Origin: a virus | IMG/VR virus record: IMGVR_UViG_3300012352_000399 | Coordinates: 1 to 15,235 of that record | Length of the DNA: 15,235 nucleotides | Strand: one strand, 5' to 3' | In this document: positions 1 to 15,235 of the stretch, in pieces | How positions within the stretch are numbered: position 1 is the first letter of the stretch | How the letters are laid out: each line of letters opens with the position of its first letter | Position numbers and translations under genes: made by a program | Notes under the pieces: model-generated | Told to the model about the DNA's origin: nothing | Databases searched by the model: none | What the model saw: the letters and a program-made list of their open reading frames with translations, nothing else

Positions 1-55
1 GTCATAACCAATATTCCATCTGGTCTATAGAATAGGTCTTTGGCATAGGGATATA
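1..55. repeat. 55-bp exact direct terminal repeat, copy 1 (identical to 15181..15235); circularisation overlap
   Basis: gtcataaccaatattccatctggtctatagaataggtctttggcatagggatata occurs at both window ends with no mismatch. 55 is a common assembler k-mer length, so this is probably an assembly overlap of a circular or concatemeric molecule. Confidence 0.95.
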
Positions 56-142
56 GTTTGTATTCTCCTGTGCCTGTGCTTATAAAGTCTCTTGGATCCA
101 CTAGTTCTGCCGTCCTTGCATTGTAGTATAAGTATACATGAA

Positions 143-172
143 CAAAGAAAAAAGCCCAATAGCTGGCGGGCT
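143..172 (-). terminator. Candidate intrinsic terminator closing the regulatory operon
   Basis: The minus strand reads AGCCCGCCAGCTATTGGGCT (AGCCC/GGGCT stem) followed by TTTTTCTTTG, 59 nt after the stop of the 107-aa ORF. The stem is short (5 bp plus G-U), so this is a weak to moderate call. Confidence 0.4.
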
Positions 173-230
173 ACTGAGCTTTAATCTTTACCTAGGGGTA
201 GGTTTTGTCATTTGGCAACGACAAATATAA

Positions 231-933: not shown

Positions 934-1135
934 TATTACTTCTGTCCCCGTCGATATGATCTACATCTAATAGCTTCTTATCTAGTGGAACTGTAAGGCA
1001 TCTCTCACAATACCCCTTTTTAGCCTTCCGTGCCTGTCTACGGCAGTTTAAACAGCTAGACCTATACTGTCTAGTCCCTTTCTTGCTAATACCCTTTAAA
1101 GCGGCGTTTCTGCCGCATTTGCATTTAGGCCTCAT
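833..1135 (-). CDS. HNH endonuclease (zinc-finger HNH, packaging-associated type)
   Basis: A canonical motif is present: CERC...DVDHIDGDRSNNEPNNLQTLCKPCHKIKT (CxxC, DH, N, CxxCH). In the circular map it lies near terS/terL, as in cos phages that use an HNH partner for terminase. Confidence 0.85.
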   Translation of the reverse strand: MRPKCKCGRNAALKGISKKGTRQYRSSCLNCRRQARKAKKGYCERCLTVPLDKKLLDVDHIDGDRSNNEPNNLQTLCKPCHKIKTKEYGDYKNREILQQV

Positions 1136-1250
1136 TTGTCACCAACCATCCAACTGGGGCGGCGGCGGCGGTACACTCTTTACAGTGATCAAGGAAGCGA
1201 AGGTATTTCTTACAAGTGTTGCAAAAGTATATAGTTCCTTCTTTTACCAT
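1125..1250 (-). CDS. Unannotated 41-aa zinc-ribbon ORF (below the ORF-track size cut-off)
   Basis: Hand translation gives MVKEGTIYFCNTCKKYLRFLDHCKECTAAAAPVGWLVTNEA, with CxxC-x9-CxxC. Its ATG overlaps the stop of the upstream 118-aa gene (TCATGGTAA), and its stop overlaps the HNH start by 11 nt. It fills an otherwise unexplained 108-nt gap. Confidence 0.35.
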   Translation of the reverse strand: MVKEGTIYFCNTCKKYLRFLDHCKECTAAAAPVGWLVTNEA

Positions 1251-1600
1251 GACATTAACTCTTCTACTTGAATCAAAGAAAGATCAGTTGATTGTTTTGT
1301 ATTTATATTTGTATTTAATTTGTATTTAGGTGGTAATGTCATGCCGTAGGGTACGGCTTCAGGTACCGTAGGTTCGTAATGATTTGCCGCATCATAGTTT
1401 CTTGTCTGTTTTAGATAGCCAGCTTCTACTAATTCTTTCTTGGCAGTTCTGACTGTTCTTTCACATAATCCAGTTCCATCTGCTATTTGCTGATTAGTTG
1501 GTCTGGATGGATTGTATGAGGCAATTATCAATGCTACAATTCTAGCCTTGGTGCTTAGATTAGATTCTCTAATTAGGCGTAAGTACTGGAAGTAATCCAT
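1244..1600 (-). CDS. Winged helix-turn-helix protein (HTH_36 / DnaD-N-like; candidate replication initiator or transcription regulator)
   Basis: LSTKARIVALIIASYNPSRPTNQQIADGTGLCERTVRTAKKELVEAGYL is a typical wHTH segment. The gene has a strong SD (AAAGGAGAT) and is the first gene after a consensus promoter. Confidence 0.65.
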   Translation of the reverse strand: MDYFQYLRLIRESNLSTKARIVALIIASYNPSRPTNQQIADGTGLCERTVRTAKKELVEAGYLKQTRNYDAANHYEPTVPEAVPYGMTLPPKYKLNTNINTKQSTDLSLIQVEELMSW

Positions 1601-1625
1601 GTTATCTCCTTTCTGGTGAGATAAC
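1601..1625 (-). promoter_or_regulatory. Perfect 8-bp inverted repeat GTTATCTC-N9-GAGATAAC overlapping the RBS (operator and/or SD-sequestering hairpin)
   Basis: The minus strand reads GTTATCTCACCAGAAAGGAGATAAC followed directly by ATG. The right arm contains part of the AGGAG Shine-Dalgarno. The repeat starts about 4 nt after the -10 hexamer. Confidence 0.5.
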
Positions 1626-1628
1626 TAA

Positions 1629-1657
1629 ATTATAATGTATTATTTCTCTTATGTCAA
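1629..1657 (-). promoter_or_regulatory. Consensus sigma70-type promoter (TTGACA-17 nt-TATAAT)
   Basis: The minus strand reads TTGACA (1657..1652), then a 17-nt spacer TAAGAGAAATAATACAT, then TATAAT (1634..1629). It sits in the 57-nt gap between the 67-aa ORF stop and the wHTH gene. Both hexamers match consensus perfectly. Confidence 0.65.
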
Positions 1658-1861
1658 CTACTTGTCTTTGTTCATGAAATGCACATATATGTCATGCTGA
1701 CGCTGTTCAAGTCTATTTAACTGATCTTTCATAGATGAGCCTGAATTGGGGACTAATTCGGACAAATAGTGCTTTACTAACCATCTAACCATACCTATAA
1801 GTTGTACTTGTATTAATAGGATCCCGCCCACTATTGATAGAATCATCTGTATATTGCTCAT
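1658..1861 (-). CDS. Small membrane protein, holin-like candidate (67 aa)
   Basis: It has one N-terminal hydrophobic helix (ILSIVGGILLIQVQLIGMV) and a charged C-terminal tail. Its start shares an ATGA overlap with the upstream gene, and it is the last gene of the structural operon. No adjacent endolysin was recognised. Confidence 0.45.
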   Translation of the reverse strand: MSNIQMILSIVGGILLIQVQLIGMVRWLVKHYLSELVPNSGSSMKDQLNRLEQRQHDIYVHFMNKDK

Positions 1862-2574
1862 GGTCTAATTATCTTTCCATTCCTAGCTGCCGCTTGCTGA
1901 TAAGCTGAGTAACCTGGCATTCTATCTAATCCAGATGCAGATCCACCAAATGCTTTTGTCTTTCCTTTTCCAAATCTTTTAATAAGAAATTGCCTATTTT
2001 TTTCTCTGTTAAATCTATTGTCTGCAGTTGTTCCACCAGTTCTGTAACCGTTTCTAGCTGCCGCCGCTTGGTAATTAAAAAGTGCAGTTGCGGTATTCGA
2101 ATATACATTTCTTGGTGTTGCTAAAAATCTTCCAGAACCAAACATTAATCTATCTACAGCATTTTCCATAAACGATTGATGACAAGCATCACGAAGTTCA
2201 TCAAGCATTTCTGCAACTTCATCAATTATTAAGTTAATAGCATTGTAATATATATCGCCAAGCTCATCTTGCATAACATTGACGAACTCATCTGGATCAT
2301 ATTCTTCTTGTGTTAATTCACAATAATCTAGTGCCTTTGGAGAAAATTCATCTACTATAAGAGTTGTTTGTCCAGCATTACCAGCTTGATCTTCAGCCCA
2401 AGAAAGTATGTCATTGACTCCTTCTTCCCAGGATTGTTCATCAAATTGAGGAGCAAGGTCTAATGCATCTTCAGCACCAAAACCTCTTCTGCCTCTTACC
2501 CTTGAAAGATTTCTAAGACCATTAGCTCTGTATGAACTTCTCATGGCCCTTCTGAGAAGGAATCTAATTAACAC
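1858..2574 (-). CDS. Hypothetical virion-module protein, 238 aa, with segregated charge blocks
   Basis: It has an Arg-rich N-terminus, a strongly acidic centre (EDQAG...EEYDPDEF...DEVAEMLDELRD) and a basic Gly-rich C-terminus with a duplicated Q-AAARNG motif. The annotated start is GTG at 2574, overlapping the upstream stop by 1 nt. An alternative ATG lies at 2544. Confidence 0.55.
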   Translation of the reverse strand: MLIRFLLRRAMRSSYRANGLRNLSRVRGRRGFGAEDALDLAPQFDEQSWEEGVNDILSWAEDQAGNAGQTTLIVDEFSPKALDYCELTQEEYDPDEFVNVMQDELGDIYYNAINLIIDEVAEMLDELRDACHQSFMENAVDRLMFGSGRFLATPRNVYSNTATALFNYQAAAARNGYRTGGTTADNRFNREKNRQFLIKRFGKGKTKAFGGSASGLDRMPGYSAYQQAAARNGKIIRP

Positions 2575-2933
2575 TAAATATCACCAGATATTATTTTTGC
2601 TTTATATTTAAATCCTTCAACTATGCCAAGAGCATTTACAACTGGCTGTGTAGACTTGATTTCCCATGTGCCATCAACATAAATTTCATTTCCATTTCTA
2701 TCTAAAATGTTTGATAGATACCCAGCTTTTTGTAACTTGGAGTTAGTTAATACAACTATATCGCCAATAAATGTTGTGCTTAAAGCAAGTATTATCTGCT
2801 CAGGAACTTCAGTATAAACATTTTCTGTTACTGATCCGTCTGCAGATGTTACCTTTGTATACCCATAGTAGTCAGCAGTATAATTATATTTAGCTCTTCT
2901 AAGCGTATCAAACAACATTATATTTTCTTCCAA
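2574..2933 (-). CDS. Possible head-closure / head-tail joining protein (119 aa)
   Basis: Size, position directly after the connector gene, and a beta-rich C-terminus (GNEIYVDGTWEIKSTQPV) are compatible with SPP1 gp16-like head-closure proteins. The call rests on synteny and weak pattern only. Confidence 0.4.
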   Translation of the reverse strand: MEENIMLFDTLRRAKYNYTADYYGYTKVTSADGSVTENVYTEVPEQIILALSTTFIGDIVVLTNSKLQKAGYLSNILDRNGNEIYVDGTWEIKSTQPVVNALGIVEGFKYKAKIISGDI

Positions 2934-3307
2934 TCAACATTGTTTGGCCACTGGAATATCTTACCAGTTCTGTAGCTTCTTGATCTATTCCAAGATAAGC
3001 CGTTTGCAGCAATGATTGCTAGTGGTGACATAAATGGTGACATCATTCTAGTATCAAAGTTAACCATGGCATCTGTCTGCCCCTGGCTTGTTAAAGCTGC
3101 TTGCTTAAAAACAATATCCTCATTCTCAAGCATGTAGGCTGTTTGATAAGAAGTAATCTTATCTAGCAATATTAAATCGGATGGAGCTTCAATATCAATT
3201 TCATCTCTTCCAATATAGATTTCTACGATTGCTTGGGCTCTCATAATTAATGGGAGTGTTACATCGTATCCAGTATATTCTTTTACGCTATTAATTGTAC
3301 TAAACAT
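2918..3307 (-). CDS. Head-tail connector / adaptor (gp6-like, Phage_connect_1-type)
   Basis: The N-terminal pattern INSVKEYTGYDVTLPLIMRAQAIVEIYIGRDEI resembles the usual gp6-like signature (...aA...ie.y.gr). Size is about 130 aa, and the gene overlaps its neighbours. Confidence 0.55.
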   Translation of the reverse strand: MFSTINSVKEYTGYDVTLPLIMRAQAIVEIYIGRDEIDIEAPSDLILLDKITSYQTAYMLENEDIVFKQAALTSQGQTDAMVNFDTRMMSPFMSPLAIIAANGLSWNRSRSYRTGKIFQWPNNVDWKKI

Positions 3308-3642
3308 TATCTGAATCTCCTTCCTAGTTCACGCACTCTTATAGTGTGTGTTGTTGTAAAGTCTAACTTACCTGTCCCGCTCAATTTAAGCTGAAACACA
3401 TAGTCTCCAGGGTATTCAAAAAGGCTGCGGTCTGTTGGCCACTCAAACACAATTGTTCCAAGATCTTTGGCAGCCGTATTAAGAGTTGCACCTGTGAGGC
3501 TTATTTCTTCATTTCTTGATCCTAATAGAACTGCTTCAATTGTAGTATAGGCAGAGAGGTTAAAATCATTTCCATCCTGGTCCTTTACTTGAATCGAAAG
3601 AGGTCTTGCAGGAATTTGGTCTATCCAGTATTGACTAATCAT
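3307..3642 (-). CDS. Small beta-sandwich structural protein (Ig-like / BppU_N-like, tentative)
   Basis: LSIQVKDQDGNDFNLSAYTTIEAVLL...GTIVFEWP...GDYVFQLKL follows the alternating-strand pattern common in phage Ig-like fibre or baseplate accessory domains. Its start shares an ATGA overlap with the stop of the giant ORF. Confidence 0.45.
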   Translation of the reverse strand: MISQYWIDQIPARPLSIQVKDQDGNDFNLSAYTTIEAVLLGSRNEEISLTGATLNTAAKDLGTIVFEWPTDRSLFEYPGDYVFQLKLSGTGKLDFTTTHTIRVRELGRRFR

Positions 3643-6600
3643 TTGATTACGTCCTCTCTTATATATAGTATTGGGTCTACATGTATTATTTGTAGAACAA
3701 CTTGATCTTCTGAAGCAACATTGGATCTGCTATTTGCAAACATTCCTGCATTAGCTACCATTGTTGGTGCTGCAATTGTTGAGCCTGGCTTCACAATTGT
3801 AGCATTTGCTTCCATAGGTAGTACAAGTATCTTTGTTATTCCACTAGTAAAGTTTGTCTCAGGTAATGTTGCAGTTGCAACCATAGATTGAGCTGCAAAG
3901 TCATTAAACTTATCTACTATTTCTGTAGCATTTGGCATTTCTGCTGTTGCTGCAAAAGCCTGTGGTCTAACAACAGTTCCCTCAAGAAATTCTCTATTAG
4001 ATAACCAACGGAATCCTCTTGTAGGCATTGATGGCACTTCAAATGATACTGTTGGGTATTGCCATGAATATGTACTAGCAAAGAACACACTGCCTTGAGG
4101 TACAGATCTAAATGATAATCCGCCATTCTTATTTATTTTTCTTACCTTAACTGTTTCTTTTTGTACGCCAGCTTTATTAAAGTTAGTGTCTAATTCAAAA
4201 TCACCGCTTCTTTGTTGCAAAAGATGCATACCGTTTAATGACCAATATGGAGTTTCTGCTTCAACAAAATCTTGAGCAAGCAGTTCATCTCTTGTTTCTA
4301 AAGTAATGATTCCATTTTCATAAGCGTAATTTACCCAGTAAACACTTGTAAATTCAACTACACCACTTTCTAAACATTTGTTTATTTCTTCAGTAAAGTT
4401 TACATATATCTTTCCGCCAACTTGTGTTCCATCAAGAACATCACCTGGCTCAATAATAATAGACTGAGCATAATTTCTATAAGGATTTTCAATTAAATCC
4501 AATCCTCTACGAACAGTATTAGCAAAGGCTGTAATAATCTTTCCAGCTTTTACATTTTCAAATGGTGTAGCAAGATATCCAGATCTATTATTATTAGCTC
4601 GTGCACCAGTTGTTGAAATAAGAAACTCATCTCCAACAGCTAAAGCATCTTTGTGTTCATATTTTGCAAATTGTCTATCTGCCCCGCCCCAACGGTACTC
4701 ATCTGTAGATACCCAATATGCTGCTTGAGTTTTAACTAATGCTGGATAATCAGTGATATCTGGATGAGTATTAACAATTCTAGTTCTATTGTTCTTCCAT
4801 GTATCTTCCCATCCAAGAGGTTCATCGTATTCTGGTGGGACTGGAAGATCAGCAGCACCTTCAATGCCAAACATCTGTGTTGGTGAATAAGGATCGCTGT
4901 AATTACCTTGACCTACATTGTCATCCATGTCTGGAACTGTCTCAACACGATCTACAATCTTAAGATCAAGAGCAAGCTGAGCATTTGCAACCATTAAAGA
5001 TATACCAGTATCTACAGCTGCACGAAGACTCTTTACAAAGTCTTCAAATATCTTTGATTCTCTTAAATTAAAGTATGCGTCAACAACTTCAGCTCCAGTA
5101 AATGCATCCTTTTCGTTAGGATCGTTTGGATAGTTCTTGAACATAATCATGTCAAATTTAGATAAATCAATATCATTAATTAAATCAATATATCTTGGAG
5201 CATCTGTCAAAGGATCTCTAAATGTGCGACGCTTATTAACTAAAGCGTATGGAGCATTTGTTGTATTTTGAGACTGACTTACAAATTGTATAAAGTTAGT
5301 TTTTCCAATATTTTCAACTCCACCATAAGCTTCAACCTTAACAAGATCAGAAACCCACTTACCAGTAATATCTACTGGAAATACATCCCAGCCTTCAAAT
5401 TCTTGTGGAGGTGCTGTAAAGTAATCAAGAGTTGTAAGAGTATCTGGAGATTCATCACTTGTGTATGGACCAGTACCAAACGGTGTTCCAGTTTGCGGAG
5501 ATGATGTAGGCCAGAAGTAAAGCATTAATGCTCTTCCTCTATTTCCTGCAGCCTTTGATTCTTGTGCAATTTCTGCTGTTGCAGTAGCTGGCTCAGCATG
5601 AACTGGTTCATATTTAATAGATGCTGTGTAATGATCTGTTACTTCATCTGACTCAACAAAGAATGCTGCATCGTATGACCAAGCAGATGTTTCAAAGTCT
5701 GACTGCCATCTTGTATTTGAGTGGTTTGATCCAATAATGTATGGACGAATTCCAGCTCCTGATGCAAAATTGCTATCTGCAAAGAACTGAATGTCTAGCT
5801 GACCATCAATCCAGAACTGTACACGACCATCAAATCCGTACTGGATAATAATGTGGTGCCATGCTCCATCATCTATTCTCTTATTCCCATAAGCTGTAAC
5901 AAATGAGTATTTAGCAATACTTGTGTTATCTGGGTGAGCAAATATTCTAGCTTCGCCGATTCCCTGTGTAGCACGAGTTGCATACAACTTACCATCAATT
6001 AAACCAATTGAAGATGTTGCGCTTTGGTATCCAATAAAGCTTTGCTGGAATCCCTGAGCCATAACCTGATTGGCTTTTGTCGATTTAAATGTAAACTCAA
6101 GGCTGTATCCGTTATTTGAAACGTAATTGTTTTCAGGAATTGAGAATTGTATGTTTCTAAATCTAACTGCTTTTCTTTCGTAATCATCAAATGTTCCAAC
6201 CTCAAGAACAGGTGTTGGGGTAGCTGTTTGAAATGCATTTGTTGCAACTGCATATTGAGTATCAGTGCTTGTATCTGTTGGTGTATCTGTAACAATGCTA
6301 CGAGGCAAGTTATTAATAATCTTATTTGTATTTGCCCCGCCAATACTTTGTGTAACATCATCAAATAGCTTTAAGAATGCTGAGGCTGAAGATGTTCCAG
6401 CACTGCCAGCTAAGTTATCAGTCTTCCATCTTTCGCCATTAACTACAGAGTGCTGTAGGTATAGCTTCTGATACCAGATATCGTCTGTAATTAATTTGTA
6501 AGCAGGTGGGCTTACAAATATTGCTTGGACTGGAATTGATTGTGCAACAATTAAAGCGCCCAGGGTAGATGATATTGCTGGATCAACCATCTCTGCAGTA

Positions 6601-9215
6601 GCAATACCTGGGTTTGAATTAAAGTTGCCTGGTACAAATACTTCTGCTTCTGGCATCATTGCTGATGCATCCATATGTAGGACCTGGTTATTTTCTCCAA
6701 TATCCCATCCTGGATTTTCGCCTTGGGCATCTGCGGTCATAGGATCAGCAAGATTTTCTGTGTTCTTTGTTGCCTCATAGTTAGGATTTAAGAATAATGC
6801 ATCCACTAACATTGGCGGAATAAATGGAAATACGTTTGCAAATTCTGCAGATACAATCATTGCTGGTTCTGCAATTGTTGGACCAAATCCTGCTGCTATT
6901 GTTGGATCAACTGCTAAAGCAGATACTGTCCATTCTGTTTGATTCTGTATTGCTTGGTAAAGATCAAATACATCATTTGCACCCAATGCACCTGGGATTA
7001 ATGCAAATTCATCAATGTATGTATCTTTAGATGCTGTTCCAGTAGAATTGTATTTGGTTTCTGCAGAGACACCCCATGCTCCGAAGTCAGTTAAATTTAC
7101 TGCAGCAGTAGACATAGTTGCTACTTCTTTTCCATCAAGATAGAGTTTAAATGAACTTCCATCTTTTACACCAACTGCATGGTGCCATTTATTGTCACCA
7201 ACATTTATAGTTGTAGTAAGGGAATCAGTATCTGTTGGGCCAAATCCTTGATTTATTCTAGCTGTTAAATGTCCAGTGGAACCAGACATTGCGATTGTAA
7301 TACCAGCTCCAATAAATCCATACATACCAGCAGAAAATAATATTTGTTCAAATGATGTGTAGCCATTTGCTTTAAAGACTACAGATGCTGTTTGACGATT
7401 ATCTGCTGAGTATAATCCATCTACTCCATCCCAATCACCTTGTAAATATGTATCTGCATTTGTAAATCTATAAGCTTTGCCGTTTAAAGAAGCATTTCCA
7501 AATGTTATGGCTTCTCCATTTATGCCAGCAGAAAATGCACGGATAGAACCAAAGTTAGTAGGAGTTCCAGTTGTATCATCTAGTCGATACTCAAGGCTTG
7601 GTGCGTATGAATTAGTTAGATCATTAAATGCACTTTCAAATCTAACGCGAGGTTGAACCATTCCAGCAGCAGCTTGAATTGGAACAGCCGCAGCTGCCAT
7701 AATTGCAGCTCTTTCTGTAGATGTAATTGTGTTGTATCCAGTTACAAACATATGAGATACATAGGCATACTTAGTATTAGCACCAGTTTGACCAGTTAAT
7801 CCAAATACAGCAGTACCTACAGCTGGACTATTATTGTTACCAGGTGTTGCAGTACTGATTTCTGTTCCATTATCAATACTAATCTTAATTGTATTTCCTG
7901 AAGCAGATCTCCTTGCATGAACAAAGTGCCAATTGTTGTCGCACCAATTTGTCTGATTATTTGATACGCTACTAGCTGTATAAGTTGTACCATTATGGTT
8001 CATAAGGAACCTAATGTATCCATCAGGTGTAGCACCTATTTGGTAGTTATTGTCAGTAAATAATTCTTGATAGGTTATAAAGTTAGTATCTTTTGCACCA
8101 AATCCAGATTCTGCTTTAAACCAGAATCCAATAGAAAATTCATTGTCTGTAATTTCTGGTGAGTAAGGTTCATTTGTTCCAAATGCTAGCTGTACAATAT
8201 TGTTTGGTGCACCTCTATTGCCTTTAAGCTTTAAGCCACCAGATCCTTGAATACCAAGTTGTGGCCCAGTTGTTGTTTCATTATAAAATGCCCATGCTGT
8301 TTCAGCATCTCCGCCGCTTCCGTAGTTATGAATCTTCTTTACTTCATCAAACTTATACCATTGTTCTAGTGATCTGGTTGCTAAATAGTCATCAAGCATA
8401 ACTGGAGTATCAAAGTTGGATACCTGAATGTCTCCAATATCTGCAGTAGCTGTTGCAGGTGTTTCAATAATTACTATTTCAGTTGATATTGCTGGATCTA
8501 CTGCAAGGGCTGATGCTGTAGATACTTCAGCTGTTGTAGTTCTATCTGCAAACTCCAACATATGATTTGCTACAAATGTATCTACCTGAGCAGTAGTTCT
8601 TGCGCTTCCATTGTAAAATGCATAAAAGTCAATTGTTGCTTCTGAATAGGCAGATGGAGATGCACCGCTTGAATTAGTATATGAACCAAGGTTAACAAAT
8701 CCACTATAATTTAAATTACCAAGTGTGCTTTTAGTTCCGATAAGAACGCCATCTACATATAATCTAAAGCCAGCTGTTCCATTATGATAAGAAACTACTA
8801 TATGATGAAATTTACCATCACAAAGATTGACTGATCCAGTTATAGAGTTTCCACCATAACTTACTGTATTAAATGTTGCTCTGATATAACCATTTGATGT
8901 AATTTGTATTGAAGTTGTTTGTAAAGATGATAACAAATATACATCAGAAGCTGGAGCTGAACTTCTTCTAAATACTATTTCATGTTCAAAATTATTAATA
9001 CCATATGATGCACCCCATTGATGTAATACACGGCCATCTGATCCAAAGTCATAAGATGCATTACCAGTAAGAGAGTTTGGATTTTGTGTAACAGTGCCAA
9101 ATTGACTAGAAGAAACAGAAAGTCCAGAATAATTTGCTTTTTCAGTTGAAGATGAGTCTAAGTTTGTTGCAAGTGTAAAGTTTCCGTCTGCTTGGGCTAC
9201 TGTATATAATGACAT
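3639..9215 (-). CDS. Giant 1858-aa virion protein with four LamG/concanavalin-A-like lectin repeats and an unassigned C-terminal region (putative tail fibre/spike or adhesin)
   Basis: This is an uninterrupted 5577-nt ORF. The LamG (Laminin_G_3-type) core signature W/F-H-H...LY-DG recurs four times: DGKFHHIVVSYHNGTAGFRLYVDG (aa 133-156), NNWHFVHARRSASGNTIKISIDNG (427-450), DNKWHHAVGVKDGSSFKLYLDGK (674-696) and DDGAWHHIIIQYGFDGRVQFWIDGQ (1115-1139). No SD precedes the ATG. Confidence 0.9.
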   Translation of the reverse strand: MSLYTVAQADGNFTLATNLDSSSTEKANYSGLSVSSSQFGTVTQNPNSLTGNASYDFGSDGRVLHQWGASYGINNFEHEIVFRRSSAPASDVYLLSSLQTTSIQITSNGYIRATFNTVSYGGNSITGSVNLCDGKFHHIVVSYHNGTAGFRLYVDGVLIGTKSTLGNLNYSGFVNLGSYTNSSGASPSAYSEATIDFYAFYNGSARTTAQVDTFVANHMLEFADRTTTAEVSTASALAVDPAISTEIVIIETPATATADIGDIQVSNFDTPVMLDDYLATRSLEQWYKFDEVKKIHNYGSGGDAETAWAFYNETTTGPQLGIQGSGGLKLKGNRGAPNNIVQLAFGTNEPYSPEITDNEFSIGFWFKAESGFGAKDTNFITYQELFTDNNYQIGATPDGYIRFLMNHNGTTYTASSVSNNQTNWCDNNWHFVHARRSASGNTIKISIDNGTEISTATPGNNNSPAVGTAVFGLTGQTGANTKYAYVSHMFVTGYNTITSTERAAIMAAAAVPIQAAAGMVQPRVRFESAFNDLTNSYAPSLEYRLDDTTGTPTNFGSIRAFSAGINGEAITFGNASLNGKAYRFTNADTYLQGDWDGVDGLYSADNRQTASVVFKANGYTSFEQILFSAGMYGFIGAGITIAMSGSTGHLTARINQGFGPTDTDSLTTTINVGDNKWHHAVGVKDGSSFKLYLDGKEVATMSTAAVNLTDFGAWGVSAETKYNSTGTASKDTYIDEFALIPGALGANDVFDLYQAIQNQTEWTVSALAVDPTIAAGFGPTIAEPAMIVSAEFANVFPFIPPMLVDALFLNPNYEATKNTENLADPMTADAQGENPGWDIGENNQVLHMDASAMMPEAEVFVPGNFNSNPGIATAEMVDPAISSTLGALIVAQSIPVQAIFVSPPAYKLITDDIWYQKLYLQHSVVNGERWKTDNLAGSAGTSSASAFLKLFDDVTQSIGGANTNKIINNLPRSIVTDTPTDTSTDTQYAVATNAFQTATPTPVLEVGTFDDYERKAVRFRNIQFSIPENNYVSNNGYSLEFTFKSTKANQVMAQGFQQSFIGYQSATSSIGLIDGKLYATRATQGIGEARIFAHPDNTSIAKYSFVTAYGNKRIDDGAWHHIIIQYGFDGRVQFWIDGQLDIQFFADSNFASGAGIRPYIIGSNHSNTRWQSDFETSAWSYDAAFFVESDEVTDHYTASIKYEPVHAEPATATAEIAQESKAAGNRGRALMLYFWPTSSPQTGTPFGTGPYTSDESPDTLTTLDYFTAPPQEFEGWDVFPVDITGKWVSDLVKVEAYGGVENIGKTNFIQFVSQSQNTTNAPYALVNKRRTFRDPLTDAPRYIDLINDIDLSKFDMIMFKNYPNDPNEKDAFTGAEVVDAYFNLRESKIFEDFVKSLRAAVDTGISLMVANAQLALDLKIVDRVETVPDMDDNVGQGNYSDPYSPTQMFGIEGAADLPVPPEYDEPLGWEDTWKNNRTRIVNTHPDITDYPALVKTQAAYWVSTDEYRWGGADRQFAKYEHKDALAVGDEFLISTTGARANNNRSGYLATPFENVKAGKIITAFANTVRRGLDLIENPYRNYAQSIIIEPGDVLDGTQVGGKIYVNFTEEINKCLESGVVEFTSVYWVNYAYENGIITLETRDELLAQDFVEAETPYWSLNGMHLLQQRSGDFELDTNFNKAGVQKETVKVRKINKNGGLSFRSVPQGSVFFASTYSWQYPTVSFEVPSMPTRGFRWLSNREFLEGTVVRPQAFAATAEMPNATEIVDKFNDFAAQSMVATATLPETNFTSGITKILVLPMEANATIVKPGSTIAAPTMVANAGMFANSRSNVASEDQVVLQIIHVDPILYIREDVIK

Positions 9216-9246
9216 AAAAATAGGCTGCTGGCGTTATGCCGCAGCC
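9216..9246 (-). terminator. Intrinsic-terminator-like hairpin plus T-run immediately upstream of the giant ORF
   Basis: The minus strand reads GGCTGCGGC-ATAAC-GCC(A)GCAGCC followed by TATTTTT and then the giant-ORF ATG. The stem is 9 bp and GC-rich with one bulge and a 5-nt loop. The stop codon of the 66-aa ORF lies in the loop. Confidence 0.5.
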
Positions 9247-9434
9247 CGTACTCCAATTCTGAATGATTCTGGGTTGATTGTTGAAATGCTGTGTCCGCCT
9301 ATAGAAATGATTGGAGCAAAGGAGAGGTTGGAGACTACTGGAGTAAGATCACCAGAAAGAGACTCTACAGTAATTTGGACTACGACTAGTTCGCAACTTG
9401 CGATTAGTGCGCCAACCTCTACCTTTGCATCCAT
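9234..9434 (-). CDS. Small hypothetical protein, 66 aa (capsid-module ORF)
   Basis: It is co-oriented, fills the gap between the 143-aa gene and the giant ORF, and has AAGG upstream overlapping the previous stop. It shares the higher G+C of the capsid block. A plus-strand ORF also overlaps here, so coding status is unsure. Confidence 0.4.
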   Translation of the reverse strand: MDAKVEVGALIASCELVVVQITVESLSGDLTPVVSNLSFAPIISIGGHSISTINPESFRIGVRAAA

Positions 9435-9445
9435 GCGTAATTACC

Positions 9446-9877
9446 TTACGCTACAGTGATTCGAACAATACCAGTCGAATCCCATGTGATTGTGAAGTTA
9501 CCATTGGTTGAAGACTGGTCTGAACCGAAGTCTACGTATCCAATGAGAGCTGATGTGCTTGATGTGCCTGTTGAATCATATACAACTGCATAACGAGCTG
9601 TGATAGTTGATGAAGACCATGTAACATCTGCAGCGTCAAGAACGATTACGTTTGTGCCTGAATCGTATGTTGCTGTCTTAGATGCTAGTGTGATTCCACC
9701 AGCTGTGTAACCTGTACCTGTTACTTCGTATGTAGAAACATCGTTGAAGTAATCATGTGTATCTTGGTTAGGTGTGTAGGATGAAGTAAGTAGAGCAACC
9801 TTGATTGTGTCAGAGTCGAAATCTACTTCCTTGTTGAGTGCCTTAAGTAGGAAGTTACCGTATAGTTTAGAAGCCAT
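9446..9877 (-). CDS. Conserved-looking structural protein, 143 aa (capsid decoration, head fibre or other virion protein; function unassigned)
   Basis: It lies directly after the major capsid gene and has an AGGGGGA SD. The composition is beta-rich and Thr/Ser/Gly-rich (YEVTGTGYTAGGITLASKTATYDSGTNVIVLDAADVTW), typical of virion surface proteins. Confidence 0.6.
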   Translation of the reverse strand: MASKLYGNFLLKALNKEVDFDSDTIKVALLTSSYTPNQDTHDYFNDVSTYEVTGTGYTAGGITLASKTATYDSGTNVIVLDAADVTWSSSTITARYAVVYDSTGTSSTSALIGYVDFGSDQSSTNGNFTITWDSTGIVRITVA

Positions 9878-9891
9878 TAGTCATTTCCCCC

Positions 9892-10797
9892 TTACGCTGA
9901 AGTCTTGCGAACGATTGCGAACGCTTCAGGAGCCGCTACTGCGAATCCACGACGAACACGAGTCTTTAGCAAGACGCCATCCTTTGAAAAGTCTGCATCA
10001 CGAGAGATTGCAGATTCTACTGTGCTACGAACACCGTTGATCATCATTTGGCGGTTACCAACGATAAGCAATGGGTCTCCTGTTGGAGCTGATGTAGCTG
10101 CAGCTGAAGTTGCTGCACCGTATGAGATTACTAGTGGGTATCCGAATAATGATCCTGGACGAGCACCTAGTGGATCTGGAAGAACAAGGTTTCCACCTGT
10201 TGTTTCCATCTGACGAATGAGGTTAAGCATCTTTGGGTGAACGATAACAACTGTGTTAGCTGCATCGAAGTACTTTGACTCTTCTGCCTTGCCTAGAGCG
10301 TTAGAAATATCTGCGAACTCTAGATCTCCTGCAGTTGAAATGATGTTTGCACCTGAGTTGTACTGTGAAACTGAATAGTAAACAGAGTTGAACGGCTGTC
10401 CGTCATCTCCGTCGCCTACAGCTGTTACACCAAGGCATGCATTGTCATACTTACGAGCCCACTGTGAAGCCCATTCTCTCTTGTATGTGTTGAGTGTGTC
10501 AACGAGTGAATCGTTAACATCTTCCTCTGAAATGTTGAAAATCTGTGCGTACTTCTTAGCTGTAAGAACTACCTCATCCAGAGTTGTATCTGAATTAGGA
10601 ATATCTACGCCTTCTGCTACGATTGTTGGTGCATCTGATACGAAGCGTGGAACGCCCTTTGTACGAGATGACATATTCTCACGACGAGCAAATGCTTCTA
10701 CTACAGAGTTAGCTGTTGTTGCTTGAATAGCAACTGAGCCTTTTTCCTCTGGAATATAGCCATTACCTTCTGTGAGATCTGTGCGACCTGCGGCCAT
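9892..10797 (-). CDS. Major capsid protein, HK97 fold (Phage_capsid family)
   Basis: It is 301 aa with a strong SD (AAAGGAGATTAACATG) and follows the scaffold gene. The segment TLDEVVLTAKKYAQIFNISEEDVNDSLVD matches the characteristic HK97-family pattern (..L.a.K.a....is.El..Ds). Confidence 0.85.
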   Translation of the reverse strand: MAAGRTDLTEGNGYIPEEKGSVAIQATTANSVVEAFARRENMSSRTKGVPRFVSDAPTIVAEGVDIPNSDTTLDEVVLTAKKYAQIFNISEEDVNDSLVDTLNTYKREWASQWARKYDNACLGVTAVGDGDDGQPFNSVYYSVSQYNSGANIISTAGDLEFADISNALGKAEESKYFDAANTVVIVHPKMLNLIRQMETTGGNLVLPDPLGARPGSLFGYPLVISYGAATSAAATSAPTGDPLLIVGNRQMMINGVRSTVESAISRDADFSKDGVLLKTRVRRGFAVAAPEAFAIVRKTSA

Positions 10798-10820
10798 GTT
10801 AATCTCCTTTTAATTAGTTA

Positions 10821-10902
10821 ATTTGGGTTTTTGAACATATAATCGTCCGAATATATTAATCGCAACCCAAATGTCCATTTGGAGCTGCATAAGACAATTA
10901 TA
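10821..10902 (-). promoter_or_regulatory. Structured leader upstream of the capsid gene, with a perfect TATAAT hexamer and mutually exclusive hairpins
   Basis: On the minus strand, TATAAT (10902..10897) lies 10 nt after the scaffold stop, with only a poor -35. Downstream, CCAAAT-GGAC-ATTTGG forms a 6-bp hairpin, and ATTTGGGTT pairs with AACCCAAAT 34 nt further on (9 bp). The two structures share the ATTTGG segment. Confidence 0.3.
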
Positions 10903-10911
10903 CCGTACTTA

Positions 10912-11361
10912 TTATTTCTTTAAAACCATTTTTGCTTGCAAATCTGATGCAGATTGAGGAACTTCTAATGAAGCAGCTACTCCTGAGTCAGCTTTACCAG
11001 CTACAATGAATTTTGGATCGAATAATTCTGGGAAGTCTGTCTTTAATGTGCTGATTTGCTCATCAAGACCTGCAACCTCAAAATCTTCAGTTAAAGATAA
11101 TGCATCCATCTTAATATACTTATTTAGTTTATCTCCATGGGCAATACCTAATGATGCAAGATGTTTATTAACATGCTCCATCACTAACTTTGACTGGAAT
11201 TGGGAAATCTTGGAGACTGATTCATTTACCTGTGCCTCCAAGGCTTCCTTTTCCAATCTAAACTTCTTTGCCTCCGCCTTCGCTTTATCTAAAGCATCTA
11301 AGACGGCTTTAGGATCACGAATCTCGTCAGATGTACCTTCTACTTGATTCTGTTCTTCCAT
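10912..11361 (-). CDS. Scaffolding protein (149 aa, coiled-coil)
   Basis: It sits between the portal and capsid genes. It is acidic and Lys/Glu/Ala-rich with heptad-like character (DALDKAKAEAKKFRLEKEALEAQVNESVSKISQFQSKL). Confidence 0.7.
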   Translation of the reverse strand: MEEQNQVEGTSDEIRDPKAVLDALDKAKAEAKKFRLEKEALEAQVNESVSKISQFQSKLVMEHVNKHLASLGIAHGDKLNKYIKMDALSLTEDFEVAGLDEQISTLKTDFPELFDPKFIVAGKADSGVAASLEVPQSASDLQAKMVLKK

Positions 11362-11362
11362 T

Positions 11363-12769
11363 TTATTCTCCTGTATTGTTTTGCTCAGCGGCTACCTGTT
11401 GTAGTGCCAAGTTGTTTGTATTTAATCCAGTTCCACGCAAAGCAACCTCTGTTGAGTTTGCATTGTCTGTTGTATTTGCCATTGCTTCATCAGCAATAAT
11501 CTTTGCAATTTCTGGGTCATATCCAAGCTCAAGAAGGATCTGCTCCAAAGGAACTCCTACTGACTTCTTGCGAACTGCGATATCCCATTGGTCTAGAGAA
11601 TCGATTGATTCTGGAGACTTCCAATCAATATCTACATCAGCAACAATGCCTTCGATCTTAAGCATAAACTTAAATAGATCTCTCCATGTTGAACCAAGAG
11701 CAAGCTGGCGGTTAAGAACCTTCTTGAATAATGGTGCTTCAGCTACACGCAAAGCTTGTCCTGATGGAAGGTATGTTGTGCTTGAGAAGTAATGAACTGG
11801 AGTTGATGTAATTGCAGCCATGTCTGAAACAAACTCATTAACTGGGTTTGTAAATGTTGATGGGTCTGCTGCTGGGAATTGTCCAACAGATTGAACTCCT
11901 TGCAAGTACCAGAGTTGTCCTGGACCATTTTGCAATGCTCCAATGTTTTCTCTAGCTGTATCATCTTCTGAGAAGTCATCTATTTCAGATGAGCTTCCAC
12001 CATTTGATAATGCATAACGCTGTGGAGCACCCTGATAGTCTACTGTCATCATGTGAGTTGATATCAGCTTGTTGATAGCATCCTGTGGGCCAAATGCATC
12101 AGCATGCTCTGGTCTTCCGTATGGCTTATTTGTTCTGAAATGGAAAACTGGAATTTCATTCCAAGGATTAACCACAGTTTCAACCAAAGTAAGATTTGGC
12201 AGCCCATTTAGAGAATCAAGTTCACCTAGACCCTCATACTTTTCAATTCTATCTGTGTAATACATATTGATCTTGATAACTTTGCGGTCAGCGGCATCTG
12301 TAATCTGCCACATCTTTGTTGCAAATGACTTAACACGAGGGTTCTCCTGATCATATACAAGAGTAGTAGTCATTGGTGAGTTGTAATCTATTGCTAGATT
12401 CCCGTCCATATCTGGCCATACAATTGCATAGCAATCGCCATAAACAAGTGCATTTCTATGAATTTCGTTAATATCAAGCTTCAAATCTGTCTGTTCCCAG
12501 ATTTTATTAATATATGCGTCTCCTGCTGGGCTAGTTGTCTCAACTTGCTCAATTTCTAGACGATTGTGTACTGCATCTACTACAGTCTTGCTAAAATTGA
12601 ATCTAAACGGAGTAACTCCCGAAAATCTTGACTGTTCGTTTCTAAATAATCTGTACCAGCGTTGATGAGTAAATACTTCATCATTTGCGCCTTCGTAATA
12701 CGCTTCAGCGACCATATATCGATCTCTTTTGTTAATTATCTGGTCTAAAGCTAATTTAATATCTGACAT
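11363..12769 (-). CDS. Portal protein (SPP1 gp6-like)
   Basis: It is 468 aa, lies immediately after terL, and has a strong SD (AAGGAGATAAAATG). The N-terminal AEAYYEGANDEVF motif and overall layout are typical of gp6-like portals. Confidence 0.85.
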   Translation of the reverse strand: MSDIKLALDQIINKRDRYMVAEAYYEGANDEVFTHQRWYRLFRNEQSRFSGVTPFRFNFSKTVVDAVHNRLEIEQVETTSPAGDAYINKIWEQTDLKLDINEIHRNALVYGDCYAIVWPDMDGNLAIDYNSPMTTTLVYDQENPRVKSFATKMWQITDAADRKVIKINMYYTDRIEKYEGLGELDSLNGLPNLTLVETVVNPWNEIPVFHFRTNKPYGRPEHADAFGPQDAINKLISTHMMTVDYQGAPQRYALSNGGSSSEIDDFSEDDTARENIGALQNGPGQLWYLQGVQSVGQFPAADPSTFTNPVNEFVSDMAAITSTPVHYFSSTTYLPSGQALRVAEAPLFKKVLNRQLALGSTWRDLFKFMLKIEGIVADVDIDWKSPESIDSLDQWDIAVRKKSVGVPLEQILLELGYDPEIAKIIADEAMANTTDNANSTEVALRGTGLNTNNLALQQVAAEQNNTGE

Positions 12770-12770
12770 T

Positions 12771-14261
12771 TTATCTCCTTAAGTAATTTAATTGCTTTAC
12801 AAATACTTTTGGAGTACTGTTATCCAAGAAGTATAGAATTCCTGACACTACTGCGTCCAGTACGTCATCGTGGCTTACCTTTGGGAATGACCACATTTGT
12901 TCTTCTAGAGCTGGGAAGTGTTGTGTATGTCTAACTTTGCCTTGCTGATAGAAGTTCAAAGCTTTTCCTGCACGGATTTGCTTTGATACGGATTGTCGAA
13001 TTGATTTGTAGCGAACTGGTATATGTTTAAACACATCTTGCCACAAATCGCCTCCCTGGTTTGTTTCTACGTATATAATACCAGGATTGTATGTTTCAAC
13101 CAAGGCTGAAACTCTGTCTGCTAGTTCAGATGGAGATACTTTAAGTTGAAATGCATCTCTTACATAAATGTTTCCATCTTCACCTCTGCTCAATACAGCA
13201 ATACCTGTATAGTCAGAAACTTTATTCTTTGTAACTGCAGGGTCAATAGATATGATCGTATTGCCGTAGTCCTCTTGATTTTCAATAATTACATCTTCAT
13301 ATGTCCAGAAATTACCATCAAGGTTCACAGGTTTGTTCATATAGTTCTTTGCGAAGTCTCTGAGGTGTCTTTGGCTGTTCAACCAGTCTAGAGGCCACTT
13401 CTCAGGCCATACAGAGCGTTCTGAGCCATCTTCAGCTGTCATAATGGCTGGATAGTAGTGTACGGCCACATTCTGGTCTGTAATCCACTCCAGTGCCTTA
13501 TCACGCTGGCCCTCAGAATGCTTTCTAAACTCATCCATCATAGAGTTTGGCATGGTTGTAGTACCCACAATAATCATGCGGGCATATATATTCATTGGGG
13601 CAATGTCGTCAAATACTGTTCTACGCTGCTGTCCTGCTTGGTATTCGGAGTAGTTCTTTTCACCTTTTTCGATATCATCAAGAATAATGAGGTCAGGGCG
13701 TTGGCCAAATACCTTTTTACCCAGTGAGTTAGTATCAATACCATTAGCGTCGAAGATAAAATCATTTGATTGAATAATACGCCAAGCGTTTGCTGCAAGG
13801 GAACGCCCAGTTGAACCGACAATCTTAGGTGTGCATAGTTCTGGGTAATCTGCTTTGAGATATTCATTAGTTTCCAATTCATTTTTAAAAGTAAGTAAGT
13901 GCGTCTCAGCTTGAGAAGCAGCATCTGAAAAAGCAGCCACAAATTTAATGTGACCATGGGCGGCGGCCCACATAGGTAGAATCAAAAAGATCCAGGTTGA
14001 CTTGCCACATTCTCTAGGAGCAATAAATGCATCTCTATTTTGCTTAGGAGAAGTTGGCTTATTGATCCAAGTCTTTCCATATTCAGCCAAATCCCAGTGA
14101 AATTCCGAAAGAGTGAGTTCATCTTCCATATTCTTTAAGTGATGTGGCAAATAAGTAAGCGCAAAGAGCATTGGATCATATTTAGTAAGTTCCCGCCTAC
14201 CTTCTGAATATGCCATCAATTCTGGATTAATGTCTTCCATGTATTTTGTTATATCATACAT
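12771..14261 (-). CDS. terL: Terminase large subunit
   Basis: It is 496 aa with a Walker A-like APRECGKST (aa 81-89) and Walker B LIILDDIE. The C-terminal nuclease-like region contains conserved acidic residues (ISIDPA..., HDDVLDAV). Confidence 0.92.
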   Translation of the reverse strand: MYDITKYMEDINPELMAYSEGRRELTKYDPMLFALTYLPHHLKNMEDELTLSEFHWDLAEYGKTWINKPTSPKQNRDAFIAPRECGKSTWIFLILPMWAAAHGHIKFVAAFSDAASQAETHLLTFKNELETNEYLKADYPELCTPKIVGSTGRSLAANAWRIIQSNDFIFDANGIDTNSLGKKVFGQRPDLIILDDIEKGEKNYSEYQAGQQRRTVFDDIAPMNIYARMIIVGTTTMPNSMMDEFRKHSEGQRDKALEWITDQNVAVHYYPAIMTAEDGSERSVWPEKWPLDWLNSQRHLRDFAKNYMNKPVNLDGNFWTYEDVIIENQEDYGNTIISIDPAVTKNKVSDYTGIAVLSRGEDGNIYVRDAFQLKVSPSELADRVSALVETYNPGIIYVETNQGGDLWQDVFKHIPVRYKSIRQSVSKQIRAGKALNFYQQGKVRHTQHFPALEEQMWSFPKVSHDDVLDAVVSGILYFLDNSTPKVFVKQLNYLRR

Positions 14262-14358
14262 TTTTACTGTCCAAATTTATTCTCAGTGGCAAAATTTATA
14301 TTTTTAAATTTAAGTACATTTCGGGTGGTCTGCATGCAATTGTCGACATATCTACTTA

Positions 14359-14829
14359 TCAATTAATAACCTTTAATGATTGCTTAATAGACTCTGATCT
14401 CATCTTGGCTTCATTAAGCATATCTACGATTGCTAAGTCTGAGCCATCCTTTGATCTATTTTCATTGATATTAGTAGACTTACCTTCAATTAGATTGATT
14501 GTCTGTATAGCCTTATGTATAGCTGTAGATAACTTATTAATATCTTCTGCAAGTAGATCTTCTTCATATAGCTTCTCTATAGATCTATCTAATACTGCCT
14601 GTGCCGCCAATACTTTCTCTTTATCATTGTAGAATATAGCCAAATCCTTAGCCATTACCGCCAAAGAGTTAGCTGTTGGCATATCTATATTTCTCTGTGC
14701 ATAGAATCTCTTAGCTGTATGATAACTCTTAGGATATCCTAATGTTCTCATAGCTGGACCAATTCCCATTTCATTGGCCATTTCTATAAATTCGCTTACT
14801 TGTTCTTCTGTGAATACTGGATATCCCAT
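14359..14829 (-). CDS. terS: Terminase small subunit (putative)
   Basis: It is 156 aa and lies directly upstream of terL. It has an N-terminal HTH-like segment (EEQVSEFIEMANEMGIGPAMRTLGYPKSYHTAKRF), a coiled-coil-like remainder, and a TAGGAGT SD. Confidence 0.6.
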   Translation of the reverse strand: MGYPVFTEEQVSEFIEMANEMGIGPAMRTLGYPKSYHTAKRFYAQRNIDMPTANSLAVMAKDLAIFYNDKEKVLAAQAVLDRSIEKLYEEDLLAEDINKLSTAIHKAIQTINLIEGKSTNINENRSKDGSDLAIVDMLNEAKMRSESIKQSLKVIN

Positions 14830-14840
14830 GTTAAACTCCT

Positions 14841-14856
14841 ATTTTTATATATATAT
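14841..14856. repeat. AT-only tract with (TA)5 microsatellite
   Basis: atttttatatatatat sits just upstream of the terS SD and about 50-80 bp from the paired DnaA boxes. Confidence 0.7.
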
Positions 14857-14898
14857 CGCCATTTACGGAGGCGTTCCTGAATCGTAATACTAATATAT

Positions 14899-15075
14899 CT
14901 AAATCTCTGTGGATAAGTCTTTATTGCTTGTGGATAACTTCTTCTTCCATTTGGGATCTTGCTCCCATTTCTTTTTCTTTACTGATCTGGAAGCTACTTT
15001 ATCAAGGTTAGTTTCTCTTCTTATCCCATGTTTATTAGTATCTATTACTACTCTACTATTGGACTTTTGAGTCAT
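14899..15075 (-). CDS. Unannotated 58-aa highly basic ORF (below the ORF-track cut-off)
   Basis: Hand translation gives MTQKSNSRVVIDTNKHGIRRETNLDKVASRSVKKKKWEQDPKWKKKLSTSNKDLSTEI. AGGAG and GAGG elements precede the ATG. It is co-oriented with all other genes. Its 3' end contains both DnaA-box 9-mers, each read as Leu-Ser-Thr. Confidence 0.3.
   Translation of the reverse strand: MTQKSNSRVVIDTNKHGIRRETNLDKVASRSVKKKKWEQDPKWKKKLSTSNKDLSTEI
14908..14937 (-). promoter_or_regulatory. Two perfect DnaA-box 9-mers (TTATCCACA) in direct orientation, 21 bp centre to centre
   Basis: The plus strand shows TGTGGATAA at 14908..14916 and 14929..14937, which is TTATCCACA on the minus strand. I found no other exact copy in the window. 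Confidence 0.5.
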
Positions 15076-15185
15076 TCCGCCTCATCTCCTATTGTTCGGT
15101 CAAGGAATCGCCTCATTTGAGGACTTGCTTTGAAGGAGAAGCTGAACTCTTGTGTATCTGTCTCATTGAACATCTCTATTGTCAT
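15072..15185 (-). CDS. Possible 37-aa acidic ORF spanning the circularisation junction
   Basis: Hand translation gives MTIEMFNETDTQEFSFSFKASPQMRRFLDRTIGDEAE. Its TGA overlaps the ATG of the 58-aa ORF (GAATGAC). The SD is weak, so it could be non-coding. Confidence 0.2.
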   Translation of the reverse strand: MTIEMFNETDTQEFSFSFKASPQMRRFLDRTIGDEAE

Positions 15186-15235
15186 AACCAATATTCCATC
15201 TGGTCTATAGAATAGGTCTTTGGCATAGGGATATA
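15181..15235. repeat. 55-bp exact direct terminal repeat, copy 2 (identical to 1..55)
   Basis: Identical to 1..55 when compared base by base. Confidence 0.95.

Follow-up and report, generated by a model that had tools for sequence, protein, structure and literature searches.

What function could two perfect DnaA boxes serve just upstream of the packaging genes of a small virus? This question is raised by the IMG/VR virus record IMGVR_UViG_3300012352_000399, of which positions 1 to 15,235 were analyzed (this whole stretch of 15,235 nucleotides is called the window below). Comparison of the two ends of the window revealed a 55-bp overlap; the window is therefore a complete circular assembly of 15,180 bp. 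All genes are carried by the minus strand, on which two copies of the 9-mer TTATCCACA are located at the junction of two small genes (p69 and p58) with the packaging/late operon, which begins with the gene of the small terminase subunit (TerS). An earlier note on this DNA had read the two copies and a nearby AT-only tract as a candidate origin recruiting host DnaA, with a peptide repeat as the alternative. We found that the 9-mers are a selected DNA element, independent of coding, and they are very probably genuine DnaA boxes, forming a conserved cis-element that binds DnaA. With somewhat less than even confidence, we favor their interpretation as an accessory, clade-specific docking array for DnaA in the packaging/late-gene control region, where it would have a regulatory or architectural role.

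An exact search confirmed the two perfect co-oriented boxes, 21 bp apart from start to start and separated by a 12-bp gap (Table 1), and revealed no further exact copies of TTATCCACA elsewhere in the window. Both boxes match the DnaA-box consensus at 9 of 9 positions (high-affinity R1/R4 type), and the box flank TTATCCACAG is the same as at R1 and R4 of Escherichia coli. A first-order Markov model of the window genome predicts 0.19 exact copies on both strands, where 2 were observed, and 3.8e-5 same-orientation pairs within 40 nt, in agreement with the earlier statement that two perfect 9-mers in 15 kb are improbable by chance. Short-range repetition as such is common, as exact 9-mers of any sequence are repeated within 40 nt in 16 cases versus 3.7 expected, and the significance of the pair therefore lies in the identity of the 9-mer and its recurrence in relatives. 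No inverted repeats were found around 14840–14960. The region of the proximal box resembles a site within terS (14681–14703) over 23 nt, a similarity judged to be due to chance or coding.

The recurrence was analyzed in 95 loci, comprising 80 IMG/VR loci collected by TerS, 6 contigs with an identical TerS, 8 metagenome contigs, and the window. On the gene strand, 79 exact boxes lie within the 300 nt upstream of terS and only 2 elsewhere, and the opposite strand has none (approximately 1.46 million strand-positions scanned). The 79 boxes belong to 35 of the 95 loci (~37%) and form 28 distinct arrangements of 1 to 4 exact copies each, all co-oriented and accompanied by the one-mismatch variants ATATCCACA and TCATCCACA. 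The spacing between boxes is 12 bp in 7 cases, 19–22 bp in 25 cases, and 33 bp in 1 case; the 12-nt spacing, found in 7 related arrangements, corresponds to a pair with a 3-bp gap, which the window does not have. In most of the 28 arrangements, the proximal box, either exact or with one mismatch, is found at −84 to −88 relative to the start codon (ATG) of terS; the counterparts of the distal box, varying in number and spacing, are at −97 to −160. The extended logo of the proximal box reads AG-TTATCCACA-GATA, with moderately conserved flanks that bring the motif to approximately 15 nt. The array is dispensable in the family, as the terS-upstream zone of the other 60 of the 95 loci has no exact box.

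Both window boxes are read in frame as Leu-Ser-Thr in the 3′ end of a 58-aa open reading frame (ORF; p58, 15075..14899), as had been stated earlier, and a peptide repeat in p58, or a chance duplication, could thus account for them without any DNA function. Within the p58 ORF of relatives, frame 0 likewise predominates (20 of 26 exact boxes). However, a frame analysis of 17 arrangements with 36 exact boxes revealed that 16 do not encode Leu-Ser-Thr, 6 being read in other frames and 10 lying past the p58 stop codon. The boxes are still present in one locus (L258) that has a different upstream gene, and the 9-mer is invariant where the flanking codons change. In homologs of p58 (40–84% identity), an N-terminal HGIRRE motif is conserved and the C-terminal tail, which overlaps the boxes, is variable. 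Boxes after the stop codon, in other frames, and beside another gene show that the relatives keep the nucleotides and not the peptide or its frame, which is the opposite of what the earlier note had named as grounds against a DNA element. Together with the positional enrichment (79 versus 2), these observations effectively refute the peptide repeat, and we regard an absence of DNA function as extremely improbable.

The presence of boxes is independent of the allele of a winged helix-turn-helix (wHTH) protein encoded by the window (31–83% identity to the window protein), of the TerS allele (77–96%), and of p58. No DnaA domain IV-like protein was found to be encoded in the window by Pfam and PHROG searches. 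Since the boxes track none of these alleles and no such protein is encoded, the binder is presumably an invariant host factor, and the perfect match to the consensus points to DnaA; we thus infer that the binder is most likely the host initiator DnaA.

A protein other than host DnaA could also occupy the sites, for example, a phage- or helper-encoded one resembling DnaA domain IV, an initiator of the helper, or TerS. The sites would then serve as a helper-specific handle or a packaging repeat. DnaA domain IV is encoded by some phages (pelagiphages of the HTVC010P type, PMC8477408). Moreover, the nearest cultured relatives of the window, the Streptomyces satellite phages MiniFlayer and Mulchroom (46–53% identity in the large terminase subunit, TerL, and 39–44% in the capsid protein), are helper-dependent; one lineage (L012, described below) has a different iteron array at this locus, as if lineages served different partners; and the conserved flanks lengthen the motif beyond the 9-mer. 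On the other hand, no DnaA_C-like protein is encoded in the window, no helper is known, and the 9/9 match to the universal consensus, kept in 28 arrangements, is hard to call coincidence. TerS cannot need the boxes because it is 77–96% identical between box-bearing and box-less genomes. We therefore consider a binder other than host DnaA quite unlikely. A specific version, in which the boxes are TerS recognition repeats comparable to pac or cosB R-sites, was rejected, as there is no covariation with TerS and one identical TerS protein is found with both 2-box and 3-box arrangements. As a covariation test, arrays of host-type boxes (TTGTCCACA) were looked for in MiniFlayer, Mulchroom, and the Streptomyces elements, and none were found. 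A scan of species genomes with TerL for a host yielded one probably mis-binned contig of an archaeal metagenome-assembled genome and distant integrated Streptomyces elements, none of which has box arrays.

If host DnaA is bound, the boxes could recruit it to an origin that depends on this protein and is either secondary or independent of a helper. DnaA would oligomerize from the boxes onto the AT-rich spacer at 14885–14907, rather than onto the (TA)5 tract, open the DNA, and load the host helicase. Several features fit this interpretation. (i) Read as TTATCCACA, every box is directed toward the adjoining AT-rich stretch, as at the junctions of boxes and DNA-unwinding element (DUE) in oriC; boxes 6/7 of Bacillus subtilis are orientation-dependent (PMC6669920). 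(ii) At the proximal end of the array in many relatives, a strong box is followed after 3 bp by a weaker one, which is the layout of the basal unwinding system (BUS; PMC8287927). (iii) The spacer contains a TA pattern with a 3-nt period (ATA TTA GTA TTA), similar to DnaA-trios, that starts 11 nt past the proximal box; a run of 4 such NTA triplets has a probability of 0.0034 in an AT-rich background. The strand of the trios was assigned by reading the E. coli oriC sequence and not by a tool. (iv) The upstream boxes are helically phased. (v) L012 has an origin-like layout at the equivalent site, with eight iterons followed by approximately 35 nt of AT. (vi) No helicase, primase, or polymerase gene was found among the window proteins by Pfam and PHROG searches, whereas a wHTH protein with an HTH_36 match was; the earlier description of a genome without replication enzymes but with such a protein is thus correct.

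Several other observations argue against an origin. Because 60 of the 95 related loci have no exact box, the boxes are not the essential origin of the family. The window carries just two boxes, which are spaced by 21 bp and do not form a tandem pair. About half of the arrangements with boxes lack the trio-like pattern, and the spacer element that contains it is found in box-less relatives too. The spacer is among the least stable 1% of the 30-mers of the genome but is a stretch of only ~20 nt with no stability minimum at 50–100 nt, and the minima of duplex stability for 30 and 100 nt (1300–1329 and 1228–1327) are not adjacent to the boxes. A better origin candidate lies inside the wHTH gene, with which the boxes are not contiguous, and in other viral contigs the genes next to arrays encode terminases much more often than replication proteins. 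Compared with the BUS of oriC (boxes 6/7, DnaA-trios, and AT-rich DNA; Richardson 2016; Pelliciari 2021, PMC8287927), the locus shares co-oriented boxes directed toward an AT-rich stretch, the box pair with a 3-bp gap in relatives, and the 3-nt-periodic pattern within 16 nt. Unlike the BUS, the window boxes are 21 bp apart without a GC clamp and face a short AT stretch, the trio-like pattern is inconsistent in relatives, the array is dispensable in the family, and there is a separate candidate origin of the iteron type. An origin at the boxes is therefore unlikely in our judgment, although it has more in its favor than the other alternatives weighed here. Of the earlier proposal, the DNA element, the perfect consensus, and the wHTH protein without replisome genes are supported; the AT tract is not. 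The cumulative GC skew, a check proposed earlier, falls almost monotonically and is uninformative about the origin because all genes are on one strand.

The AT-only tract had been described as 16 nt long; its distance of 52 bp from the proximal box is correct, and its length is 17 nt. It is the second-longest AT-only run of the genome, and relatives keep its AT-richness but not its sequence. The (TA)5 tract was rejected as an unwinding element, as it is part of the terS leader, has ordinary stability at 50–100 nt, and is separated from the boxes by a conserved GC-rich block.

The wHTH protein is similar to the N-terminal domain by which phage initiators of the O-like or DnaD-like type bind origins (initiator families phrog_270 and phrog_678). 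Its gene contains three iterons T(G/A)CGG(C/T)A, spaced by 21 and 22 bp, with one inverted copy, followed by AT-rich tandem repeats that coincide with the least stable 30-mer and lie inside the least stable 100-mer of the genome. Each of the 39 distinct alleles listed by TRF has a repeat of this kind, with a period of 11–12 nt, immediately after the wHTH domain. The motif set T(G/A)CGG(C/T)A is common to the window-like wHTH alleles, and other alleles carry other iterons, such as four copies of CCTATGGTC and four copies of GACACACAGTC with a 21-nt period. Iterons that change from one allele group to another are what one expects if an initiator is matched to its binding sites, as lambda O is to the origin within its gene. 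The core replicon is thus more likely a lambda-type module inside the wHTH gene, made up of the iterons at 1342–1391 and the repeats at 1291–1328. No boxes with up to one mismatch were found near the iterons, and the module is separated from the DnaA boxes by 1.55 kb on the circle, with five genes and a terminator in between. In the origin of P1 (oriR) and the iteron origins of pSC101, RK2, and F, DnaA boxes lie within ~100 bp of the iterons. The window shares with these replicons a small winged-helix initiator, iterons, an AT-rich region, and DnaA boxes, but differs in the distance and the intervening genes.

A similar DNA layout is observed in MiniFlayer (L081, OQ357865), where four 22-bp dyad-symmetric iterons (GTCTGTCC..GGACAGT) at 12335–12467, inside gp13, precede AT-richer 12-nt repeats. 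The same arrangement of iterons and repeats is present at 5773–5883 of an integrated relative from Streptomyces (L211). The product of gp13 (368 aa, hypothetical) has no similarity to the wHTH protein and no match to a Pfam or PHROG family. MiniFlayer and Mulchroom were described as having no replicases and as having direct terminal repeats (DTRs) (PMC10690885). The module in the wHTH gene and the equal layout in gp13 suggest that such satellites "without replication genes" carry an initiator and an origin of their own, and these origin-like modules may matter more than the boxes. In many wHTH alleles (for example, L014, L019, L053, and L221), a hairpin with a conserved TTCTAACGAA and a covarying stem (gattctaacgaatc, tcttctaacgaaga, and ggttctaacgaacc) is located just downstream of the AT-rich repeats; it may be a signal for priming or single-strand initiation, and the window does not have it.

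The DNA between the boxes and terS contains two further conserved elements. The first is GATATTGATATAT(C)TATA (ATTGATATA; 14885–14904 in the window), located between the last box and the terminus-like block and kept in both box-bearing and box-less relatives, sometimes in 2–3 copies 15–22 bp apart. As a conserved recognition site for TerS, this element is a stronger candidate than the DnaA boxes. The second is the GC-rich block, whose motif CAG(G/A)AACG...CGTAA(A/T)G is common to box-bearing and box-less relatives. The annotated left ends of the DTRs of Mulchroom (13179) and MiniFlayer (16393) align, over a short and weak alignment, to ~14878–14886, and we predict a physical end there, 22–30 bp downstream of the proximal box.

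The array could accordingly be a terminus site of the T5 injection-stop type that marks the inner edge of the terminal repeat and binds DnaA during DNA entry or concatemer processing. DnaA, largely membrane-associated, would pause or anchor the DNA, or it would act as an IHF-like cofactor for terminase at the nearby cut. The alignment of the DTR starts is consistent with such a role, as are the arrays that flank terminase genes in unrelated contigs. T5-like phages have 3-bp-spaced DnaA-box pairs in the terminal repeat, away from origins, with a hypothetical role (bioRxiv 10.1101/866236); these pairs are conserved near the inner end of the repeat, and the same 12-nt pair occurs in 7 arrangements here. 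As in the iss region of T5 (Heusterspreute 1987; Davison), TTATCCACA boxes and one-mismatch variants are conserved across the family and lie by a terminal-repeat boundary and off the origin, with 3-bp-separated pairs in the relatives of the window. By contrast, T5 has 8 boxes within long inverted repeats in a 10-kb repeat, and here 1–4 exact boxes and variants are co-oriented, mostly at two-turn spacing, without flanking inverted repeats, apparently just outside a predicted repeat of ~1 kb, and in only ~37% of relatives. Other observations also speak against a terminus function. No pile-up of contig starts at a single base was seen near terS, packaging proceeds without the array in box-less relatives, and the role in T5 is itself a hypothesis. 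Since the predicted repeat would carry terS and terL instead of pre-early genes, entry in two steps would be of no obvious use. We consider this alternative improbable.

The equivalent DNA of box-less relatives and of L012 is organized differently. In L012 (the same contig as L221), eight tandem 20–21-bp dyad-symmetric iterons ATAACAAATAGTTATAGATAT (372–556) occupy the position of the DnaA boxes and are followed by ~35 nt of pure A/T and then by the conserved terminus-like block; this arrangement was found in one IMG/VR contig only. A different iteron array at the same place points to the site as a hotspot for phased protein-binding arrays. In box-less relatives (e.g., L010, L029, L052, L053, and L062), other repeats or palindromes are located at −15 to −60 from the terS ATG, between the terminus-like block and the terS Shine-Dalgarno sequence: ATATGTCGACAA (containing the palindrome TGTCGACA), GTCTCATATGAGAC, GTCCAATATATGGAC, and TGACAATATATGTCA. 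The presence of the TGTCGACA palindrome does not track the wHTH allele.

In the docking array that we tentatively favor, DnaA would bind the co-oriented boxes on one face of the helix, as suggested by the two-turn phasing and by the proximal 3-bp-separated pair of many relatives. Its occupancy would modulate transcription from p58 into terS, or the access of terminase to the neighboring ATTGATATAT and the terminus block. As genome copies accumulate, the limited pool of DnaA would be titrated and occupancy would fall, and late expression or packaging would thereby be tied to replication and to the status of the host initiator. The array is located approximately 25 bp upstream of the conserved block, the predicted start of the DTR by homology with MiniFlayer and Mulchroom.

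Several known systems provide partial precedents. DnaA acts as a transcription factor at box clusters such as those of the dnaA promoter, B. subtilis, and lambda pR. Like these promoters, the window has several consensus boxes in a control region before the first gene of an operon; unlike in them, no target promoter was identified in the window. The datA locus of E. coli, with ~5 boxes and an IHF site over ~1 kb, titrates or inactivates DnaA. The array is likewise a cluster of high-affinity boxes outside an origin, which would soak up DnaA on a multicopy genome, but its position and orientation are strictly fixed beside terS, which a pure sink does not need. The IHF site of lambda cosB offers a further parallel, in that sites of a host factor adjoin the region recognized and cut by terminase, just upstream of the small terminase gene; unlike in cosB, the host factor would be DnaA and not IHF, and DnaA is not known to have a role in packaging.

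Five points weigh against the docking array: (i) a search of the DNA from the boxes to terS yielded no sigma-70-like promoter, which leaves a transcription factor without a target promoter; (ii) co-orientation and phasing could result from growth of the array by tandem duplication of 12 or 21 nt; (iii) the AG...GATA flanks are more conserved than a bare 9-bp site predicts, and another protein with a longer site is thus possible; (iv) the terminal-repeat boundary is weak, resting on a short alignment to MiniFlayer and Mulchroom; and (v) the boxes directed toward an AT-rich stretch, the proximal 3-bp pair of relatives, and the trio-like pattern are origin-like traits.

A scan of viral contigs for two boxes 19–22 bp apart yielded at least 120 loci (L083–L202 generally), and one match of the window's family is among the matches listed. 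Approximately 100 of 119 arrays among these matches lie between genes, and an array may contain as many as 13 boxes. For the ORFs next to the first 75 listed arrays, terminase families are among the most frequent annotations and replication proteins are rare; TerL or TerS adjoins the array in at least 14 of these 75 unrelated viral contigs. An unrelated TerS family (phrog_51; L100, L123, L129, and L132) has 4–8 boxes within ~300 nt upstream of terS, in both orientations and with pairs 2 bp apart. Thirteen proteins flanking the listed viral arrays belong to Pfam GP88.

Clusters of DnaA boxes outside origins are already known on phage DNA, and the array upstream of terS is a variant of these. 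A broader reading is that arrays of consensus DnaA boxes that precede the packaging module or adjoin the terminal-repeat boundary form a widespread and unrecognized class of cis-elements by which phages and satellites read or exploit the host initiator. Such elements might act as a timer based on copy number, releasing late or packaging functions after the genomes have titrated DnaA, or as a DnaA-primed initiation site for duplicating the terminal repeat. In the MiniFlayer-like lineage of the window, the array would be a recently acquired, swappable module; a different iteron array occupies the same place in L012. We regard a class of this breadth as doubtful. The DnaA clusters beside terminase genes in several unrelated contig groups recall an old unexplained feature of phage T5. 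If DnaA does bind, a tiny virus or satellite without replisome genes would be wired to the master replication initiator of its host at its packaging control region, and the small, easily synthesized genomes would offer a family for testing the role of non-origin DnaA boxes in phages.

Table 1. Positions of the boxes, candidate control elements, and associated genes in the window.
Feature	Position	Strand	Remarks
Distal DnaA box TTATCCACA	14929..14937	−	Exact consensus
Proximal DnaA box TTATCCACA	14908..14916	−	Exact consensus
AT-rich spacer GAGATTTAGATATATTAGTATTA	14885..14907	−	Contains p58 stop codon (14899–14901)
Conserved GC-rich block CGATTCAGGAACGCCTCCGTAAATGGCG	14857..14884	−	Candidate terminal-repeat boundary or terminase site
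(A/T)17 tract including (TA)5	14840..14856	−	Leader directly 5′ of terS Shine-Dalgarno (AGGAG, 14836–14840)
TerS, 156 aa	14359..14829	−	First gene of packaging/structural operon; 33% identity to MiniFlayer gp1
p58, Lys-rich 58-aa ORF	14899..15075	−	Variable 3′ tail overlaps boxes
wHTH protein (HTH_36), 118 aa	1244..1600	−	PF13730 8e-10; phrog_270 4e-11; phrog_678 2e-8
Candidate origin iterons T(G/A)CGG(C/T)A	1391–1385, 1370–1364, 1348–1342	−	21 and 22 bp apart
Inverted iteron copy	1357–1351		Within 1342..1391
AT-rich 11–12-nt tandem repeats TAAATACAAAT ×3	1291..1328	−	TRF; candidate DNA-unwinding element
Sigma-70-type promoter TTGACA-17-TATAAT	1629..1657	−	12/12 matches; drives wHTH operon
Intrinsic terminator, 13-bp stem and T-run	151..182	−	Ends wHTH operon, ~420 nt upstream of boxes on circle

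The gene order of the window is that of MiniFlayer throughout. Following the boxes in the direction of transcription are the genes of TerS, TerL, portal, scaffold, major capsid protein, and an 1858-aa protein, and then small genes; upstream of the boxes on the circle are the wHTH operon and its terminator, followed by p69 and p58. The TerS of the window has no Pfam or PHROG match of its own, but it is encoded directly upstream of TerL and its counterpart MiniFlayer gp1 is annotated as a terminase small subunit. The wHTH operon consists of four or five genes, encoding the wHTH protein, a 41-aa Zn-ribbon protein, an HNH nuclease, a Zn-finger endonuclease VII-like protein, and p107. Its perfect promoter and intrinsic terminator suggest a host with canonical sigma-70 promoters. 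At the nucleotide level, similarity of the window to cultured phages is limited to short TerL matches, and no known RNA families were found within the window.

The window is part of a large aquatic clade that is related to MiniFlayer and Mulchroom and comprises 216 relatives in IMG/VR, whose contigs measure ~15 kb. Two contigs, L218 (34.4 kb) and L219 (24.2 kb), are longer than one genome unit and resemble assemblies of concatemers without host flanks; a giant protein with a Laminin_G_3 domain is encoded on both sides of terS, with differing lengths (1792 and 1928 aa). In the window, the 97-nt gap between terS and terL (14262–14358) contains the longest AT-only run of the genome (23 nt, 14291–14313) and a doubtful ORF of 32 aa.

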